Shown here: one piece after another, positions 23,801 to 61,013 of the stretch | Layout: the number at the start of each line of letters is the position of its first letter | Numbering within the stretch: the first letter of the stretch is position 1 | DNA from: Acidobacteriota bacterium | GTDB taxonomy: Bacteria; Acidobacteriota; Blastocatellia; Pyrinomonadales; Pyrinomonadaceae | Direction of reading: 5' to 3' | Assembly (NCBI GenBank): GCA_046725195.1 | Contig: JBKOYD010000016.1 | Location: 49,451 to 113,450, forward strand | Length of the DNA: 64,000 nt | Position numbers and translations under genes: made by a program | The notes under the pieces: generated by a model | Told to the model about the DNA's origin: nothing | Databases searched by the model: none | What the model saw: only the letters and a program-made list of their open reading frames with translations

Positions 23801-23912
23801 TTGCGCTTTGTACTTTGAGCAAGTTCTTTGTTCTTTGTCCGGCGACTTCTTGTAAGTCGCAAAGCACAAGGTACGAAGCACAAAACACAAAGTACAAGGC
23901 ACAAAGAAAGCA
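23801..23912. repeat. low-complexity palindromic element (CTTTGT / ACAAAG word family)
   Basis: The left arm is rich in ctttgtactttg..ctttgttctttg and the right arm in caaagcacaag..caaagtacaagg. Central hairpin gcgac(9 nt)gtcgc at 23842-23860. Starts 9 nt after the stop codon. Confidence 0.6.
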
Positions 23913-36414: not shown

Positions 36415-36888
36415 ATGGCAGACACCCCAATCCTGTTGCGCGAGCAACAATACCATCAAATAAAAGCTGTCTTGGCGCGTTTGCGGATGGACTCATCAGC
36501 GAAGGTCGTTTTCCTGGTAGACAAGGACGGTCAGGAAATCGCTTCGCAGGGCGAAGTGGGGAATCTTGACACAACTAGTTTGGCGTCACTCGCTGCCGGA
36601 AACGTCGCCGCAACGGGCGGAATGGCTCAGCTCATAGGAGAAAAGGAATTCCCAACTCTTTCACACGAAGGTGAGAAAGAGAGCATCCACATCTCCGTCG
36701 TCGGCCGGCTTCTGCTCGTGGTTGTTTTTGACGAGCGTTCGAGCCTGGGATTGGTAAAGCTGCGCAGCAAGCAAGTGTCTCAACAACTGGCCGCTATGTT
36801 TGAGGAGATTGCTGCTAGCGACTACGACGACCTTGACTCACCATTCGCCGGAATTACCGACGAAGACATCGACAGTCTCTTTAGCTAA
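36415..36888 (+). CDS. mglB: Roadblock/LC7 GTPase-activating protein MglB
   Basis: Near-identical blocks to Myxococcus MglB as I recall it ([35 protein letters not shown]). Confidence 0.85.
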
Positions 36889-36899
36889 CGACACGTGCT

Positions 36900-37484
36900 A
36901 TGACTTTCATTAACTACGCTTCAAGAGAAATTAACTGCAAGATCGTCTACTACGGCCCCGGTTTGTGTGGAAAGACGACCAACCTGCAGTACATCTTTGA
37001 TTCGACCGCACCCCAGGCGCGCGGCAAGTTGATCAGTTTAGCAACGGAAACTGACCGGACTCTGTTTTTCGATTTTATGCCGCTAGAGTTAGGTACTGTG
37101 CGTGGTTTCAAAACACGATTCCACCTTTATACGGTTCCGGGTCAAGTTTTCTATGACGCGTCGCGTAAGCTTATTTTGAAGGGCGTTGATGGTGTCGTAT
37201 TTGTCGCTGATTCCCAGGAAGAGCGAATGGACGCCAATATCGAGTCGCTGTATAACCTTGAAGAAAATCTTCAATCGCAAGGGTACGACCTCATGAAGAT
37301 TCCGTACGTACTCCAGCTCAATAAGCGTGATCTCAGGAATATCGTTCCGGCGGAAGATTTGGCCGCGGAGTTGCGGCGCAAGGGCGAGCCAGTAGTTGAA
37401 GCTGTTGCTTCAACGGGAGCCGGCGTGTTTGACACTTTGAAGGCTGTTGCGAAGCAGGTATTAACGGAACTGCGGAAGGGTTAG
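36900..37484 (+). CDS. mglA: Ras-like polarity GTPase MglA
   Basis: [51 protein letters not shown]. Confidence 0.9.
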
Positions 37485-41926: not shown

Positions 41927-42183
41927 TGCGTTGAAGCCCGAGGTTTCGATTCAAATCGCTGCAAAAAAGTGTTCGGATTGTAGTGGATGGATATTCATTG
42001 AGCAATGCACTCATGTTTGGTATGTCCGATACGCTTTAGCTTGTCGTTGCTCGCGACAAGCGAACCTAAAGATTTGACTGTTGTCGCGCATTAAATCACT
42101 GAGAAGCTTTAAGCCGCGACAGGACAAACTAAAGTTTATCGGACACCACGTTAGCGCTATACTGATAGCGACAGGTCCCTCGA

Positions 42184-42888
42184 ATGAAGTCCGAGAAAAT
42201 ATCAGAACTGACAACCAGCCGCTTGAGCGTCTATCTTCGCTGTCTGAACACCCTCCAGACGGCCGGTATCAAAACAATTTCCTCGCAAGCGCTCGCCGAG
42301 CAGTTCAATCTTAATTCCGCTCAGATTAGGAAGGATCTGGGCTACTTCGGCGAGTTTGGCGTGCGCGGCGTCGGATATTACGTCGAGGATTTGCGCGACC
42401 ACATCACAAGAATTCTCGGTCTCGACAGTCCACATCGTGTCGGTATCGTCGGCGCCGGTCGATTGGGGACTGCGCTGGCCAACTATAATGGATTCGGCAG
42501 ATCAAACTTTACTGTCGTCGCCCTATTCGATAACGACAGTCAAAAGATTGGGCGAAAGATTGGCGACTCCGATATCGTCGTTCACGACGTCGAACGACTT
42601 ACTCAAATTACTCGTGAGGAGTCAATTGATGTGATGGTCATCGCGGTGCCGGCCAAAGCGGCGCAAAGGGTCCTAAATCTGATTATGTCTGCAGGAATCA
42701 AGGCCGTCTTAAACTTTGCACCAGCGTCGCTGAACTCACGACGCGGCGTGAAAGTTAAGACGGTGGATTTAACGACGTCATTGGAATCGTTGTCTTATTT
42801 TCTTGCTCAACCCGCGGCTGGCGCCGTCACTCATTTGCGACGGGCAGCCCCAGGGAAGATTTCGCAACGTAAAGAGCAACAGTTGTAG
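42184..42888 (+). CDS. rex: redox-sensing transcriptional repressor Rex
   Basis: N-terminal winged helix (RLSVYLRCL...ISSQALAE...AQIRKDLGYFGEFG) and a Rossmann fold (VGIVGAGRLGTALANY). Confidence 0.85.
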   Translation: MKSEKISELTTSRLSVYLRCLNTLQTAGIKTISSQALAEQFNLNSAQIRKDLGYFGEFGVRGVGYYVEDLRDHITRILGLDSPHRVGIVGAGRLGTALANYNGFGRSNFTVVALFDNDSQKIGRKIGDSDIVVHDVERLTQITREESIDVMVIAVPAKAAQRVLNLIMSAGIKAVLNFAPASLNSRRGVKVKTVDLTTSLESLSYFLAQPAAGAVTHLRRAAPGKISQRKEQQL

Positions 42889-42906
42889 CTTTCAGGAGTT
42901 AAGGTT

Positions 42907-43512
42907 ATGCGTTGTGTTCTAAAAACAGCAGTTCCTTTTTTGCTGACTCTGCTGATCGGAGTAGCCGCCGATCGTTTTCTCGGTCGCATCCTTTTTGAAT
43001 CTTTGGATCATCAAGCCGGGCCTGGTCCGATGTCCCAGCCGTTGAGAATTGAATCTGTTCCTGAGGTAGATTTTCCTGACTCTGTGAAGCGATTCGGTGA
43101 GCTCCGTGTAAAGGTCAGACTTCGCGCACTATTTGGCGAAACCGGCGAGGTCCGCGAAGTCATACCTTCTCCCTCGCTTCCCTATGGAGGACCGGAGCAA
43201 GGCATTGCGGCCCAGGATTTTGAGTCAAATAAGAGCAGATACATTGTTGATGACCTTACTCGTAACTTGACGCAGACGGCGATCCAGCAAGTAAGACAGA
43301 TCAGGTTTATGCCTAAACGGATGGACTCGACTTTCGTTCCTCAATGGGTCACGGTTGAGACCTCGTTTGAGCATATGTGCCGAGCGTGGCCACCTGGCGG
43401 AACCGATAAGTTCAGTTCAATCAGCGTCAAAGTAATGGATAACACCGGAGTGTTGTGGCAGGGGAATACTTGGGTCAATGACGGTACGGATTGCTTCAGA
43501 TTGCTCGACTAG
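42907..43512 (+). CDS. membrane-anchored hypothetical protein, weak TonB-C-like pattern
   Basis: AGGAG lies before the ATG, 18 nt after the rex stop. N-terminal TM helix (TAVPFLLTLLIGVAA). RVKVRLRALFGETGEVREV ... IRFMP resembles TonB_C. Weak call. Confidence 0.55.
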   Translation: MRCVLKTAVPFLLTLLIGVAADRFLGRILFESLDHQAGPGPMSQPLRIESVPEVDFPDSVKRFGELRVKVRLRALFGETGEVREVIPSPSLPYGGPEQGIAAQDFESNKSRYIVDDLTRNLTQTAIQQVRQIRFMPKRMDSTFVPQWVTVETSFEHMCRAWPPGGTDKFSSISVKVMDNTGVLWQGNTWVNDGTDCFRLLD

Positions 43513-43518
43513 AAAAAT

Positions 43519-44337
43519 ATGGATGAGCAAACAGCCAGACGAGATCTAATTCGCGTCTGCCATCTAATGTACGAACGTAGCTATGTCGTCGCGTCCGACG
43601 GCAACGTCAGCGTTCGTTTGGAAGATGGACGCATTCTGGCCACGCCGACGATGACGTGTAAAGGACGCATGACTGAGGATCTCATCGCGGTTACAGATCT
43701 AGAGGGCAAGTCGCTCAATGATCGACGCGCATCAAGCGAGTTGGCAATGCACCTTTTCATTTATCGCGAGCGACCCGACGTTAAGGCGGTGTGCCACGCC
43801 CATCCACCCCATGGAACAGCCTTCGCGGTCGCTGGTCTCGCGATCGACCAACCAATTCTGTCGGAGGTGATTCTCACGCTTGGCTGTGTCCCGCTTGCAT
43901 CGTATGGAACGCCTTCAACTGACGAGTTAACGGAGGCGATGCAACCCCTGGTCAAACATCACAACGCGTTGTTAATGGCCAACCATGGAGCCGTTGCGTA
44001 CGGAGCCGACCTTTGGCAGGCATGGGATCGTTTGGAAACGCTCGAACACACCGCGAAGATTGCGATCCTATCTCGCGTTCTGGGTGGTTCCAAAAACCTA
44101 CCTGCGGAGGCTGTCGAGAAGTTGATAAATGTGCGCGAGGCTGCGGGTTATCTTGGTGAGTCGGCGCGCTGCCAGGCGTGCGGATATTTGCATGAAACGC
44201 AGTTGACGTGTCCAACCGGTGACCGGCCAGCGCAGCGTTCATACGCTTCCGAATCTGCAAATGGAGGCGGCAAGATCTCGCTGACGCGAGAAGAGCTGGT
44301 AGAACTCTTGAGCCAAGCTGTAAACGGTAAATCGTGA
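43519..44337 (+). CDS. class II aldolase/adducin family protein with a 60-aa C-terminal extension
   Basis: Metal-binding His residues CHAHPPHGTAF and MANHGAVAY. The aldolase fold ends near residue 210. The tail carries CQAC..C and a terminal amphipathic helix ISLTREELVELLSQAV. Confidence 0.85.
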   Translation: MDEQTARRDLIRVCHLMYERSYVVASDGNVSVRLEDGRILATPTMTCKGRMTEDLIAVTDLEGKSLNDRRASSELAMHLFIYRERPDVKAVCHAHPPHGTAFAVAGLAIDQPILSEVILTLGCVPLASYGTPSTDELTEAMQPLVKHHNALLMANHGAVAYGADLWQAWDRLETLEHTAKIAILSRVLGGSKNLPAEAVEKLINVREAAGYLGESARCQACGYLHETQLTCPTGDRPAQRSYASESANGGGKISLTREELVELLSQAVNGKS

Positions 44338-44460
44338 CCGTTCAAGAATTGACTGGCTCATGTTTAGACGTTAGAGTCTGGGCTTCGCCTTATCAAGTGA
44401 ACGAAATCTCTTACCGTTAACTTCGATTAACGACTTCAATCAAGAAAGAGGAGCGTCTGA

Positions 44461-44742
44461 ATGCAAGAAGCACTCGGAATGGTCGAAACAAAAGGCTTGG
44501 TCGCAATGATCGAAGCGGCCGACGCGATGGTCAAAGCCGCAAATGTCACGCTGGTTGGTTATGAAAAGATTGGCGCTGGGTTTGTCACGGCTATCGTACG
44601 CGGTGATGTCGCCGCAGTGAAGGCCGCGACTGACGCCGGAGCAGCCGCTGCCCGACGTGTTGGTGAACTCGTTAGCGTCCACGTAATTCCTCGTCCACAC
44701 GGCAGTGTCGACGAAGCTCTTCCTATCGGCGATCGCGGCTAA
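44461..44742 (+). CDS. BMC-H shell protein (single PF00936 domain, PduA/CcmK-like)
   Basis: [27 protein letters not shown]...[26 protein letters not shown] lies 7 nt before the ATG. Confidence 0.9.
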
Positions 44743-44745
44743 AGC

Positions 44746-45015
44746 ATGATCATCGCTCGCATCCTCGGAACCGTTGTCTCCACTCAAAAGGACGAACGGC
44801 TAAGCGGAAAAAAGTTACTCATTGTTCGTCCTATTAATGTCGACGGTACCGATACAACTGGATACGTGGTCGCGGTCGACACGGTCGGCGCCGGTTTTCA
44901 TGAGCGTGTCCTGGTTGTTGCGGGCTCCAGTGCTCGACTGGCTCAGGGAATGAAAGACGTGCCCGTGGATGCCGCGATTGTTGGAGTGATCGATACTGTG
45001 GATGTGAACGAATGA
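44746..45015 (+). CDS. BMC-P pentameric vertex protein (EutN/CcmL family), paralogue 1
   Basis: MIIARILGTVVSTQKDERLSGKKLLIV...AVDTVGAG...DAAIVGVID. Begins 3 nt after BMC-H. Confidence 0.85.
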   Translation: MIIARILGTVVSTQKDERLSGKKLLIVRPINVDGTDTTGYVVAVDTVGAGFHERVLVVAGSSARLAQGMKDVPVDAAIVGVIDTVDVNE

Positions 45016-45196
45016 GCAGAAGCTTGAACTTTGCACTTGGTGCTTTGTACTTTGAACTTCGTCCTTGATCGCAAGACCCTTCAAATCACAAGCATTAAAT
45101 ACAAATCGCGAATACCAAGTACAAAGCACAAAGTTCAAAGTACAAAGCACCAAGCACCAAGCACCAAGCACCAAGCACAAAGCACAAAGCACTAAT
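45016..45196. repeat. 181-nt low-complexity element: perfect 24-bp inverted repeat plus 7-nt tandem array
   Basis: IR arms 45036-45059 cttggtgctttgtactttgaactt and 45131-45154 aagttcaaagtacaaagcaccaag (24/24). (GCACCAA)x4 then (GCACAAA)x2 at 45147-45192, ending 4 nt before ATG 45197. Confidence 0.8.
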
Positions 45197-45469
45197 ATGC
45201 AACTCGCTCGCGTCATCGGGACCGTGGTAGCCACAGTCAAGAACGAATCCCTGCAAGGACGCAAACTACTCGTCGTACAGTCTCTGGATAAGAATCTTCA
45301 GTCGACGGGTAAGCCAATGGTTGCCGTCGACTCGGTTGGGGCCGGACTCGGCGAGTTGGTTTTCTGGTGTCGCGGCAAGGAAGCGAGTTTTCCGTTCAAA
45401 CGAGAGGACACTCCGACCGATTGCACGATTGTTGGCATAGTTGATTCAGATGGCCACGTCACCCGTTAG
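45197..45469 (+). CDS. BMC-P pentameric vertex protein (EutN/CcmL family), paralogue 2
   Basis: MQLARVIGTVVATVKNESLQGRKLLVV...AVDSVGAG...CTIVGIVD. The 44-codon upstream extension in the track (from 45065) only translates the repeat. Confidence 0.8.
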   Translation: MQLARVIGTVVATVKNESLQGRKLLVVQSLDKNLQSTGKPMVAVDSVGAGLGELVFWCRGKEASFPFKREDTPTDCTIVGIVDSDGHVTR

Positions 45470-45480
45470 TCCACTTTAAT

Positions 45481-45765
45481 ATGATCCTCGCCCGCGTTAT
45501 CGGAAATGTAGTTGCAACACAAAAGAACCGTCGCTACGAAAATGCCAGAGTGATGCTCTGCCAACAACTCACTCCTGAGGGCCAGGAAACCAGCTATTCC
45601 GTGTTGGCCCTTGACTCCGTAGACGCTGGCGTTGGCGATACTGTGCTGATCGTGCAGGAAGGCTGGAGCGCCTCGACAGCTGCGACAGGAGAGGCGGGCG
45701 CCGCGATCGATTCAGCGATTGTTGGAGTTGTCGATCGAATTGATCTACTGTCCGATAAACTTTAG
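45481..45765 (+). CDS. BMC-P pentameric vertex protein (EutN/CcmL family), paralogue 3
   Basis: MILARVIGNVVATQKNRRYENARVMLC...ALDSVDAGVGD...SAIVGVVD. Confidence 0.8.
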   Translation: MILARVIGNVVATQKNRRYENARVMLCQQLTPEGQETSYSVLALDSVDAGVGDTVLIVQEGWSASTAATGEAGAAIDSAIVGVVDRIDLLSDKL

Positions 45766-45914
45766 TTTGTCGATCGCGTCGCCAAGAGGGCCTGAACAGT
45801 CAAAGAAGTATTGGCGAGTCAATCGAAAAGGTGAAGCTTATCGGACACTCGGTTGTGAAGCAGCAGCTCGAGGCGTATTGTGTATGTAAACGACAAGACG
45901 GCAGCATATCGAAC

Positions 45915-46334
45915 ATGAGTTTTGAACTTGATCAAGCACGGTTGATGGCCGAAAGAATTGCACGGCGAGTGGCTGCTAGTTCTTCTTCATCTCAGACTCG
46001 AACAAATGGTAACGCCGATATCACGTCAGAATTGTCGGCAATGCGTGCCAGCCTCCGTGAGTTGCAAGACCGACTGCTTCAGATCGAATCTAAAGTGCGT
46101 TCTGGAACTGATGTCTCAAGCTATTCGTCTGACACTTCCCCTAACGGTCCGCGTACGCATTCGCCATGGCTCGCCGGTGTAAACGCTAATCATCCAAGCC
46201 AGGAGCGTTTCGGAGTTGAAGAGGCGACCGTTTCAGAGCTCGTAGATTATTTTCAGAGTGAAAAGACATGCAGCGTCGAACCCGGCGGCAAACCCTGCGA
46301 CCACTGCTCTATGTGTAGTTCGCGTGGGTTCTAG
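45915..46334 (+). CDS. hypothetical BMC-associated protein (139 aa) with N-terminal amphipathic helix, poly-Ser linker and C-terminal Cys motif
   Basis: MSFELDQARLMAERIARRVAASSSSSQ...; C-terminus TCSVEPGGKPCDHCSMCSSRGF (C-x8-C-x2-C-x2-C). The start is uncertain (GTG 45831 in the track). Followed by a terminator. Confidence 0.55.
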   Translation: MSFELDQARLMAERIARRVAASSSSSQTRTNGNADITSELSAMRASLRELQDRLLQIESKVRSGTDVSSYSSDTSPNGPRTHSPWLAGVNANHPSQERFGVEEATVSELVDYFQSEKTCSVEPGGKPCDHCSMCSSRGF

Positions 46335-46355
46335 TGTTTTTTGGGAACAAATTGA

Positions 46356-46388
46356 GAGAGGCCGCCCAATCTGGACGGCCTCTTTTTT
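46356..46388 (+). terminator. rho-independent terminator closing the BMC operon
   Basis: gaggccg (46358-46364) / cggcctc (46376-46382), 11-nt loop, TTTTTT (46383-46388). Confidence 0.75.
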
Positions 46389-57250: not shown

Positions 57251-58624
57251 GTGGACCTTAGTGGCAAGAAAGTCTTGATAATTGGGGCGGCACGAAGTGG
57301 AATTGCTGCTTCCAGGTTTCTGATGGCCCGTGGTGCCGTGGTTGCACTGAATGATCAGAAGCCCATCGAGCAATGGCCGGCTGAAGCTCTTGCGCTTAAA
57401 GATTCCGGAGTGGGTTTGCTACCGGGAGAACCGCCAACCTGGTTGCTGGATCAACTTGACCTGGTCGTTGTGAGTCCCGGCGTTCCGGCGAGCATTATTC
57501 CAATCCGTTATGCCGAGCGGGCCGGAGCGGAAATCATCGGTGAAGTCGAACTTGCTTATCGTTATTTGAAAGGACGGATCATTGCTATCACTGGAAGCAA
57601 TGGGAAAACGACCACCACAGCACTCATCGGAGAGTTACTCCGCGATGCCGGCTTACCCGTGCAGGTGGGAGGCAACATTGGCAAGGCGCTGATCTCGATG
57701 GTCGAAAGTTCTCGAGATGATGGTTGGACCATTATTGAGCTGTCAAGTTTCCAGTTGGAAACCATCAAGCAGTTTCATCCGTTGATAGCAGTCGTGCTCA
57801 ACGTTACGCCCAATCACATGGATCGCTACGAAACATTTAACGACTACGCAGCCGCAAAACATCGCATCTTCATGAATCAAACGGAGGCTGATGTGGCGGT
57901 GCTCAACGCGGACGACGCGACAATCTCATCGTGGGAGAACGGGTTGCGAGCGGAGATCATAAATTTCAGTGTTAAGCGACAACTCTCGAAAGGAGTCTTC
58001 TTGCGAGGAACTGACGTGGTCTTTCGCAAGGACGGAGCCGATCAGTTCCTCGTTCGCGTCGATGAAATGAAGTTGCGCGGTCTTCACAACGTAGAGAACG
58101 TTGCAGCGGCATTCGCTGCTGGGCTTGCTGCTGGAGCCAACATTGAATCAATGCGTGAAACGGTGAAACGATTTAGCCCTGTTGAGCACCGGTTGGAGTT
58201 TGTCAGTGAGATAAACGGGGTCAAGTTTTATAACGACTCAAAAGCAACAAGCGTCGATGCAACTTTGAAGGCGCTTGAAGCTTTCGGCCAGGAAAGAGGA
58301 AAGGTGGTTCTAATTCTTGGTGGTAGAGGAAAGAAAGTGCCATATGCTCCGTTGGCACCGCTGGTTCGTGACAAGGTTCGAAAGCTTGTGCTGATCGGCG
58401 AGGACGCAGAAACAATCGCAAAAGAACTGGGTGAATGGGCATCGTTTGAACGAGCCTCCGACATGCAGGAGGCGGTGGCCGTGTCTTTCAAATCGGCGGA
58501 GCAAGGCGACGTTGTGTTACTGGCGCCGGCATGTGCCAGTTTCGATATGTTTGAAAGCTTCGAACACCGAGGGAAGGTATTCAAATCTGAGATCTCAAAT
58601 TTGAGATCTCAGATCTCAGAATAA
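57251..58624 (+). CDS. murD: UDP-N-acetylmuramoylalanine--D-glutamate ligase
   Basis: GAARSGIAA, ITGSNGKTTTTALI. The last 12 codons or so (SEISNLRSQISE) are encoded by a palindromic repeat. Confidence 0.9.
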   Translation: MDLSGKKVLIIGAARSGIAASRFLMARGAVVALNDQKPIEQWPAEALALKDSGVGLLPGEPPTWLLDQLDLVVVSPGVPASIIPIRYAERAGAEIIGEVELAYRYLKGRIIAITGSNGKTTTTALIGELLRDAGLPVQVGGNIGKALISMVESSRDDGWTIIELSSFQLETIKQFHPLIAVVLNVTPNHMDRYETFNDYAAAKHRIFMNQTEADVAVLNADDATISSWENGLRAEIINFSVKRQLSKGVFLRGTDVVFRKDGADQFLVRVDEMKLRGLHNVENVAAAFAAGLAAGANIESMRETVKRFSPVEHRLEFVSEINGVKFYNDSKATSVDATLKALEAFGQERGKVVLILGGRGKKVPYAPLAPLVRDKVRKLVLIGEDAETIAKELGEWASFERASDMQEAVAVSFKSAEQGDVVLLAPACASFDMFESFEHRGKVFKSEISNLRSQISE

Positions 58625-60955: not shown

Positions 60956-61013
60956 GCAGGAGGCGGGATACAGGAGCAGAGGGCAGGAGGCAGGAGCAGG
61001 AGCAGGAGCAGAG
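60956..61013. repeat. (CAGGAG)n-type array directly after the murG stop (same word family as 57084-57118)
   Basis: gcaggagg..caggagcagagggcaggaggcaggagcaggagcaggagcagag. It is followed at 61071-61093 by aagcacaagcacaaagtacgaag (ACAAAG family). Confidence 0.75.

Follow-up and report, generated by a model that had tools for sequence, protein, structure and literature searches.

Bacterial microcompartments (BMCs) have been catalogued by type, and the ACI type was defined by Sutter, Melnicki, Schulz, Woyke and Kerfeld (2021, Nat Commun 12:3809; PMC8217296, Supplementary Data 2). It comprises 125 loci, found only in Acidobacteria and mainly in subdivisions 4 and 6. An ACI locus is described there as holding a PF00596 aldolase with a C-terminal encapsulation peptide (EP), a hydroxyacid dehydrogenase, a triplet of pentamer shell proteins (BMC-P) and at least one hexamer shell protein (BMC-H). 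Three proteins without known homologues are also listed, of which one is short (about 80 aa) with an N-terminal EP and conserved cysteines, and another has three conserved histidines (PMC8217296). The aldehyde dehydrogenase (AldDh) of the ACI type, with an EP near the C terminus, is encoded on a satellite locus that was found in 'most' genomes (PMC8217296). Two groups of described systems are close to this type. The PVM/PVM-like loci (Planctomycetes-Verrucomicrobia type) share a class II aldolase as EP-bearing signature enzyme, the BMC-P triplet and a simple BMC-H complement, but here the AldDh, a PduL-type phosphotransacylase and acetate kinase are encoded in the locus itself, and the hosts are from other phyla. 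The catalogue reports that the ACI aldolase resembles most those of the HO (Haliangium ochraceum type) and MIC3 ('metabolosome with incomplete core' 3) systems and the ACI AldDh that of MIC3, and the BMC-P triplet is shared as well (PMC8217296). HO differs in having BMC-T proteins and in carrying an AldDh at the main locus; we set it apart by description, not by sequence. Here we describe a BMC gene cluster headed by rex, the gene of a redox-sensing repressor, in a stretch of 64,000 nucleotides from an Acidobacteriota bacterium (contig JBKOYD010000016.1 of assembly GCA_046725195.1; referred to as the window).

We consider it probable that the stretch at positions 42184-46388 of the window is the main locus of an ACI-type BMC, in a reduced and lineage-specific form. 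Loci of this kind are already catalogued, and the rex-first arrangement is the single uncatalogued point. The initial annotation of the window had placed all named open reading frames (ORFs) correctly on the + strand, and its gene inventory was borne out by the coordinates and by the Pfam and NCBIfam scores. The features are as follows.

42158-42163, + strand: TATACT hexamer, putative -10 box of a promoter for rex, 26 nt ahead of its ATG
42184-42888, + strand: rex, redox-sensing repressor, 234 aa (NCBIfam Rex, 256 bits; PF06971 and PF02629)
42907-43512, + strand: 201-aa ORF with an N-terminal hydrophobic anchor, without Pfam or NCBIfam match
43519-44337, + strand: class II aldolase, 272 aa, putative signature cargo (PF00596, E 5e-47, 160 bits)
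44349-44377, + strand: sigma-70-like element TTGACT-17-TAGAGT before BMC-H (consensus scan, 9/12 matches)
44461-44742, + strand: BMC-H hexamer shell protein, 93 aa (PF00936, E 7e-31; KAAN and PRPH motifs)
44746-45015, + strand: BMC-P paralogue 1, 89 aa (PF03319, E 1e-30)
45024-45192, + strand: two inverted tandem arrays of heptamers in the spacer between BMC-P paralogues 1 and 2 (TRF arrays; long hairpin)
45197-45469, + strand: BMC-P paralogue 2, 90 aa (PF03319, E 4e-32)
45481-45765, + strand: BMC-P paralogue 3, 94 aa (PF03319, E 4e-22)
45915-46334, + strand: 139-aa Cys-motif protein (orthologue alignment; without Pfam or NCBIfam match)
46356-46388, + strand: GC-rich hairpin with T-run, terminator-like (sequence and fold)

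The gaps between the genes are, in order, 18, 6, 123, 3, 181, 11 and 149 nt. About 50 relatives at species level show this gene order too, which places the cluster far beyond chance. No regulator of the DeoR kind was detected, and Rex is the sole regulator in the cluster.

The locus shares with the ACI type its acidobacterial host, an aldolase with a putative C-terminal EP, an adjacent BMC-P triplet and a BMC-H with the standard interface motifs. It also has the small protein with a putative N-terminal EP and C-terminal cysteines, and the main locus is likewise without AldDh. In the BMC-P tree of the catalogue unclassified-Blastocatellia AA13 is listed as ACI (main) (PMC8217296). The name puts it in one series with the gp4 AA21, AA24 and AA25 metagenome-assembled genomes (MAGs) in which the syntenic loci L017, L020 and L032 were found (loci of relatives are given L numbers); the window genome itself is not named in the tree. 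Unlike the published description, the window is without a 2-hydroxyacid dehydrogenase and without the His-motif protein, and its Cys protein has 139 aa, not about 80. The cluster is also headed by rex and by an anchored ORF, TonB_C-type or unrecognisable, and neither is mentioned in the text of the paper. The His-motif protein, with the motif HELTHVWQGHH, was absent from the window and present in the relatives L048, L065, L075, L079 and L087-L091, between the aldolase and BMC-H. A further unknown protein of about 200 aa is kept in most of the fuller Pyrinomonadaceae loci and was absent from the window as well. The His-motif protein is encoded by an accessory gene within the family, and the window holds a reduced version of the Blastocatellia ACI form.

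Other lineages, which were reached through distant aldolase representatives, had different genes beside the same core. In a large soil group the aldolase (41-46% identical) is followed by BMC-H, three BMC-P and, directly after them, a true PF00389/PF02826 dehydrogenase, and no rex, Cys or His protein was detected in these loci (L141, 10350-11294; L133, L112 and others). In 'Candidatus Acidoferrales' (L084-L086, L154) the order is a Glu/Leu/Phe/Val dehydrogenase, the aldolase, BMC-H, three BMC-P and ruvAB, without rex. A 2-hydroxyacid dehydrogenase was found neither in the window nor in any of the loci with rex, and in none of the loci sampled did it stand together with the Cys or His proteins. 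It therefore seems that the published ACI description combines a constant core with accessory genes that differ by lineage, and because of this we did not treat the 2-hydroxyacid dehydrogenase as a strict requirement for the type. In the loci scored, the neighbour of the core is rex, the 2-hydroxyacid dehydrogenase or the Glu/Leu/Phe/Val dehydrogenase, and two of them were never found together. All three of these proteins bind NAD(P)(H).

The initial annotation had compared the cluster with the PVM/PVM-like fucose/rhamnose metabolosome and had described it as enzyme-poor. We looked for the missing enzymes with a family scan that took in every ORF of at least 150 aa in the 64 kb. PF00171, PF00389/PF02826, PF06130 and acetate kinase gave no match among these ORFs, and the E. 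coli EutE, EutD and EutG sequences, used as tblastn probes, gave no match in the window. The annotation was thus right that the window has no AldDh, PduL or acetate kinase. Such a main locus without AldDh is the published normal state of the ACI type, and the enzyme-poor appearance is no anomaly. The annotation's idea of a split locus with core enzymes elsewhere agrees with what is published for this type (PMC8217296). Its PVM frame did not hold, given the acidobacterial host, the ACI features and the lack of PVM core enzymes. A PVM/PVM-like metabolosome with its AldDh, PduL and acetate kinase lost or encoded elsewhere would also have the PF00596 aldolase with a terminal EP, one BMC-H and the BMC-P triplet, and the catalogue reports the same aldolase family from the types PVM and GRM5 (PMC8217296). 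The host is, however, neither a planctomycete nor a verrucomicrobium, and the 64 kb hold no AldDh, phosphotransacylase, kinase or DeoR regulator. More than 80 syntenic loci were all without AldDh, phosphotransacylase and kinase, and the proteins with the Cys motif and the His motif are specific to ACI. The EutE probe itself works, as it found an EutE-like AldDh next to the aldolase in L149, L152, L158 and L167, four loci that belong to other BMC types. A PVM origin is in our opinion extremely unlikely.

The shell genes in the ACI-type locus encode one BMC-H and three divergent BMC-P, and this is a complete minimal shell set. Both interface motifs, KAAN and PRPH, are present in the BMC-H, whose gene has its own AGAGGAG ribosome-binding site, as had been annotated. 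The three BMC-P paralogues are mutually 37-42% identical and all lie within 1.02 kb, and their orthologues hold the same positions in the relatives. The small Cys-motif protein was aligned with about 60 orthologues, the first 40 of which were displayed. The ATG at 45915 was preferred as its start to the GTG at 45831, because the orthologues support it. Among the orthologues an N-terminal DQARLIAERIARRV helix is conserved, followed by a variable linker or coiled coil and then by an invariant C-terminal domain, C-x8-C-DH-C-x2-C-SSRGF. In the window protein the N-terminal amphipathic helix DQARLMAERIARRV is a putative encapsulation peptide, and the highest hydrophobic moment of the protein was found at aa 5-19. 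In some relatives an ORF of 141-157 aa stands between the aldolase and BMC-H (L041, 10908-11333; L007, 5251-5676; L015, 2923-3396). The L041 copy matches Clp_N (E 1e-5) and the copies in L007 and L015 are clearly similar; it is a lineage-specific insert.

The aldolase is laid out as a catalytic domain (aa 1-205), a Cys/His motif, a variable linker and a terminal helix. In the alignment of homologues H93, H95 and H156 were invariant and E74 was nearly invariant. By analogy with E. coli FucA, we take the three histidines to be the metal ligands and E74 the catalytic glutamate, and on this reading the enzyme has an intact metal and catalytic site. The motif C-x2-C-x3-H-x5-C at aa 218-231 (nt 44170-44211) was invariant in 28 homologues. 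The surrounding stretch ARCQACGYLHETxLxCPTGDRP, between the catalytic domain and the putative EP, looks like a small metal-binding knuckle; the motif is absent from the distant aldolases of other lineages. The amphipathic helix SLTREELVELLSQA, at about aa 254-268 (nt 44278-44322) after the variable linker, was conserved in 28/28 homologues. We read SLTREELVELLSQA as a putative C-terminal EP, and this call rests on its conservation and on the published ACI description, because a hydrophobic-moment scan did not single out the helix. A structure model made from a shallow alignment likewise shows an unstructured stretch and then a helix at 257-268, with low confidence (mean pLDDT 49.6). The best curated match of the aldolase was 3-oxo-tetronate-4-phosphate decarboxylase (OtnC), with 141 bits against a cut-off of 250 bits.

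With these parts, the ACI compartment of the window genome could work as follows. The aldolase would be targeted into the shell, where it may split a phosphorylated ketose (fuculose- or rhamnulose-1-phosphate-like) into dihydroxyacetone phosphate (DHAP) and an aldehyde. The aldehyde would then be oxidised by an encapsulated, tagged AldDh that is encoded on a satellite elsewhere, as the catalogue reports for the ACI type. The Cys-rich protein may be co-encapsulated as a metal-binding partner or scaffold. A reduced compartment that is independent of AldDh would instead have the aldolase-family enzyme as its sole encapsulated catalyst, for example as an acid-sugar phosphate decarboxylase, with the Cys-rich protein as scaffold or redox partner. 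The best curated match being OtnC, a decarboxylase, is in line with this, as OtnC yields DHAP and CO2, not an aldehyde. With the EutE probe (tblastn) we found no AldDh within 10 kb of ACI-like loci in four lineages, and a PROSITE-style AldDh motif scan gave none in the ACI-like loci. The catalogue, moreover, places the satellite in most genomes, not in all (PMC8217296). However, the OtnC match lies far below its cut-off, an EP-bearing satellite AldDh is the rule for ACI according to the same catalogue (PMC8217296), and a genome-wide absence of AldDh has no positive support. We regard a compartment without AldDh as quite unlikely and keep to the scheme with the satellite enzyme. In the motif scan some matches of a 2-hydroxyacid-dehydrogenase-like kind were also obtained and rejected, being merely the GxGxxG of Rex.

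The host is an acidobacterium of the Pyrinomonadaceae/Blastocatellia, Acidobacteria subdivision 4. The 90%-identity clusters of the shell proteins, with several hundred members, carry the NCBI names Pyrinomonadaceae or Blastocatellia bacterium. In a scan of genomes at species level, with one genome per species, at least 567 stretches were confirmed, and the best 80 of these were all from Pyrinomonadaceae, Blastocatellia or Acidobacteriota MAGs. The best 120 aldolase homologues were each 84-100% identical over the full length. Identity across the relatives was 94-100% for BMC-H and 80-94% for the aldolase, against 69-93% for RuvA, and BMC-H and the aldolase are thus under strong sequence constraint relative to RuvA. 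The highest-identity full-length aldolase match (94%) was in L001 (GCA_973518055.1, contig CCXVWC010000175.1, 9247-17078). There the genes after rex and the aldolase, which has kept its C-terminal helix, encode a large histidine kinase and response regulators, and no shell genes were found within 10 kb; they have either moved or been lost.

The position of rex at the head of the cluster was then compared across the relatives. Loci were scored if their flanks measured 1.5 kb or more upstream of the aldolase and 3.5 kb or more downstream of BMC-H, and they were called close if the aldolase was at least 75% identical to that of the window. In 49/49 of the fairly scored close loci rex was directly upstream on the same strand. 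It overlaps the aldolase gene in nine species (L004, L055, L056, L059, L066, L068, L071, L074 and L076), and in L090 all gaps from rex to the Cys protein are at most 75 nt. A distant lineage (L092, L093 and L097; about 49% identity in the aldolase and 64% in Rex) keeps the order ruvBA, rex, 9 nt, aldolase, BMC-H, BMC-P, and the genes downstream differ from those of the window. The hexamer TATACT was present 16-35 nt before the rex start in 73/73 spacers between ruvA and rex, and the copy at 42158-42163 is likely the -10 box of a rex promoter. The annotation knew of no description of Rex as the built-in regulator of a BMC operon. The linkage proved to be conserved, the text of either BMC catalogue paper is without mention of Rex, and our full-text literature search returned no paper describing rex inside a BMC locus.

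This arrangement suggests that rex and the aldolase share a transcript, which in many relatives would take in the whole cluster. The adjacency could also be inherited synteny without a functional tie, with a general redox regulator that happens to stand between ruvA and the BMC genes. The neighbourhood is in fact syntenic across the family well beyond rex, including CofD, TPR, queA, brkB, ruvBA, lemA and dcw, and ACI lineages without rex exist. The lack of a Rex operator, described below, points the same way. On the other hand, rex lies on the same strand as the next gene and either overlaps it or is packed against it, so the two are very likely on one transcript. The link is kept at about 49% aldolase identity with different downstream genes, and the slot beside the core always holds one NAD(H)-binding protein, never two together. 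We find a purely inherited adjacency possible but somewhat doubtful, and continue with rex as part of the transcript.

Rex of the window aligned over its full length with solved Rex structures. About half of its residues match T. maritima Rex (5zz5), whose structure was solved with operator DNA, and the DNA-recognition region is near-identical. Like the Rex proteins of Gram-positive bacteria and Thermotoga, it has the winged-helix recognition region and a Rossmann NAD(H) domain, but it differs in an extra, variable C-terminal tail of about 25 aa, and a BMC operon without an operator is unlike the known Rex regulons. The tail is conserved in length, not in sequence. It was considered as an encapsulation peptide and rejected, as it is variable and charged and has no conserved helix.

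Known Rex targets carry the operator TTGTGAA-N4-TTCACAA (PMC2883068). With a canonical recognition region, a canonical operator would be expected. Allowing up to 3 mismatches, none was found between 41 and 47 kb of the window, and in the 73 ruvA-rex spacers the best matches were no better than in shuffled sequence. Over about 1.2 Mb of related loci the core GTGAA-N4-TTCAC did not occur; 3 matches with at most 2 mismatches were obtained, which is chance level, and none of them was at the operon. Two other kinds of repeat were tried as operators. The TCGTGAA/TTCACGA heptamer arrays were rejected as Rex half-sites, having no inverted pair at N3-N6 spacing, and the TTGTCGCG/CGCGACAA inverted repeats upstream of rex (42036-42121) were rejected as specific to the window genome and not conserved in 72 relatives.

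The claim that the compartment is placed under an NADH/NAD+ sensor was not supported by these searches, and since other ACI lineages are without rex, a built-in Rex regulator is not a general part of the system. If Rex did control the operon, it would repress its own promoter and the BMC genes and release them when NADH/NAD+ rises. The tight packing with rex first on the same strand, in the 49 close loci and in the distant lineage, would fit such control. Rex proteins commonly autoregulate. Rex of S. avermitilis and of S. aureus serves as comparison for autoregulation. However, there is no operator match in the window, the spacers or the 1.2 Mb of related loci, some ruvA-rex spacers have merely about 41 nt, and the palindromes of the window are not conserved. 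Control of the operon by Rex is unlikely in our judgement. Because no Rex operator was found at the operon, we consider a shared transcript likeliest, in which Rex would be made together with the BMC proteins rather than repressing their genes, and would act in trans on targets elsewhere.

A wider proposal, which we put forward as speculation and hold to be rather doubtful, is that in Blastocatellia the ACI genes and rex form one transcript, so that the amount of the NADH/NAD+ sensor is tied to the production of the compartment, or else that Rex controls the genes through a non-canonical site or partner. More broadly, the filling of the slot beside the aldolase-shell core by one of three NAD(H)-binding proteins, according to the acidobacterial lineage, suggests that NAD(H) handling may be the exchangeable module of the organelle.

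The shell genes of the window genome may also have a transcription start of their own. The sigma-70-like element at 44349-44377, upstream of BMC-H, is not significant alone (6 sites found against 3.3 expected), and a similar promoter-like element was found at the same place in L010, L017 and L005, the three closest comparable relatives. Other relatives have spacers of 26-57 nt, which leave little room for a separate start.

Several points weigh against the assignment as an ACI main locus with rex on its transcript. Neither the 2-hydroxyacid dehydrogenase nor the His-motif protein of the catalogue description is encoded in the window. The satellite AldDh was not located in the window genome or in the relatives, and the split locus is taken from the statement in the catalogue. 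Both encapsulation peptides are putative, as read from sequence pattern and the published description, and the structure model of the aldolase is poor, with the mean pLDDT given above. No substrate is assigned to the putative aldolase, whose best curated match, OtnC, is well below its cut-off. Co-transcription is deduced from gene spacing, and a promoter-like element precedes BMC-H.

The 201-aa ORF between rex and the aldolase was found in the window's own population only, apart from weak matches (31-32%) in L010 and L089. In many relatives the protein in the same slot is membrane-anchored, with a TonB_C domain and a similar N-terminus. The ORFs of L079 and L042 match PF03544 TonB_C with 55-60 bits, and L089 and L091 list TonB_C there. 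The 201-aa ORF is a fast-evolving accessory gene, and there is no support for its being a member of the organelle.

The flanks were as annotated, with ruvB/ruvA upstream (by their translations; the Pfam names were taken on syntenic relatives) and with LemA, a TPM-domain protein, a ZIP transporter and the dcw cluster downstream. The annotated terminator at 46356-46388, between the convergent genes of the Cys protein and lemA, is a real hairpin with a T-run (-24.7 kcal/mol, z -2.9), and a rule-based terminator scan missed it. Further upstream in the window, at 36415-37484, lie a Roadblock/LC7 gene and, after it, a 194-aa ORF, in a position conserved across the family. The 194-aa ORF had no Pfam match in the window and faint to weak matches to Arf-type GTPases in relatives, and the pair resembles MglB/MglA.

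The spacer between BMC-P paralogues 1 and 2 contains arrays of the GTGCTTT/GTACTTT type facing arrays of the AAAGCAC/AAAGTAC type, and its RNA fold has -50.2 kcal/mol (z -6.4). An Rfam search of the locus gave only sub-threshold matches, of the long hairpin to miRNA precursors. Tandem heptamer arrays were also found at 23860-23906, 58581-58620 and 60956-61008 of the window, and in the aldolase-BMC-H and ruvA-rex spacers of L004-L083. In intergenic spacers of these Pyrinomonadaceae genomes they are often paired in inverted orientation and form long hairpins. The sequence of the heptamer varies by spacer and species (AAGCACA, TTCACGA, GGTAAAT, GAAACTC, GACCTAT). These arrays resemble the short tandemly repeated heptamers of cyanobacteria.

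The phylum that hosts the ACI type can form a large share of soil bacterial communities (PMC8217296), and the descriptions of the ACI microcompartment that we found in the literature are bioinformatic only. Correct filing of the locus as ACI removes the apparent AldDh anomaly. The minimal set, one BMC-H, three BMC-P and two putatively tagged cargo proteins in 2.8 kb, would be convenient for heterologous reconstruction. Two leads follow for the biology of these bacteria, namely the rex-first order without a Rex operator, conserved in one large family, and the interchangeable NAD(H) neighbours of the core, and either could help explain how the organelle keeps its NAD(H) balance.

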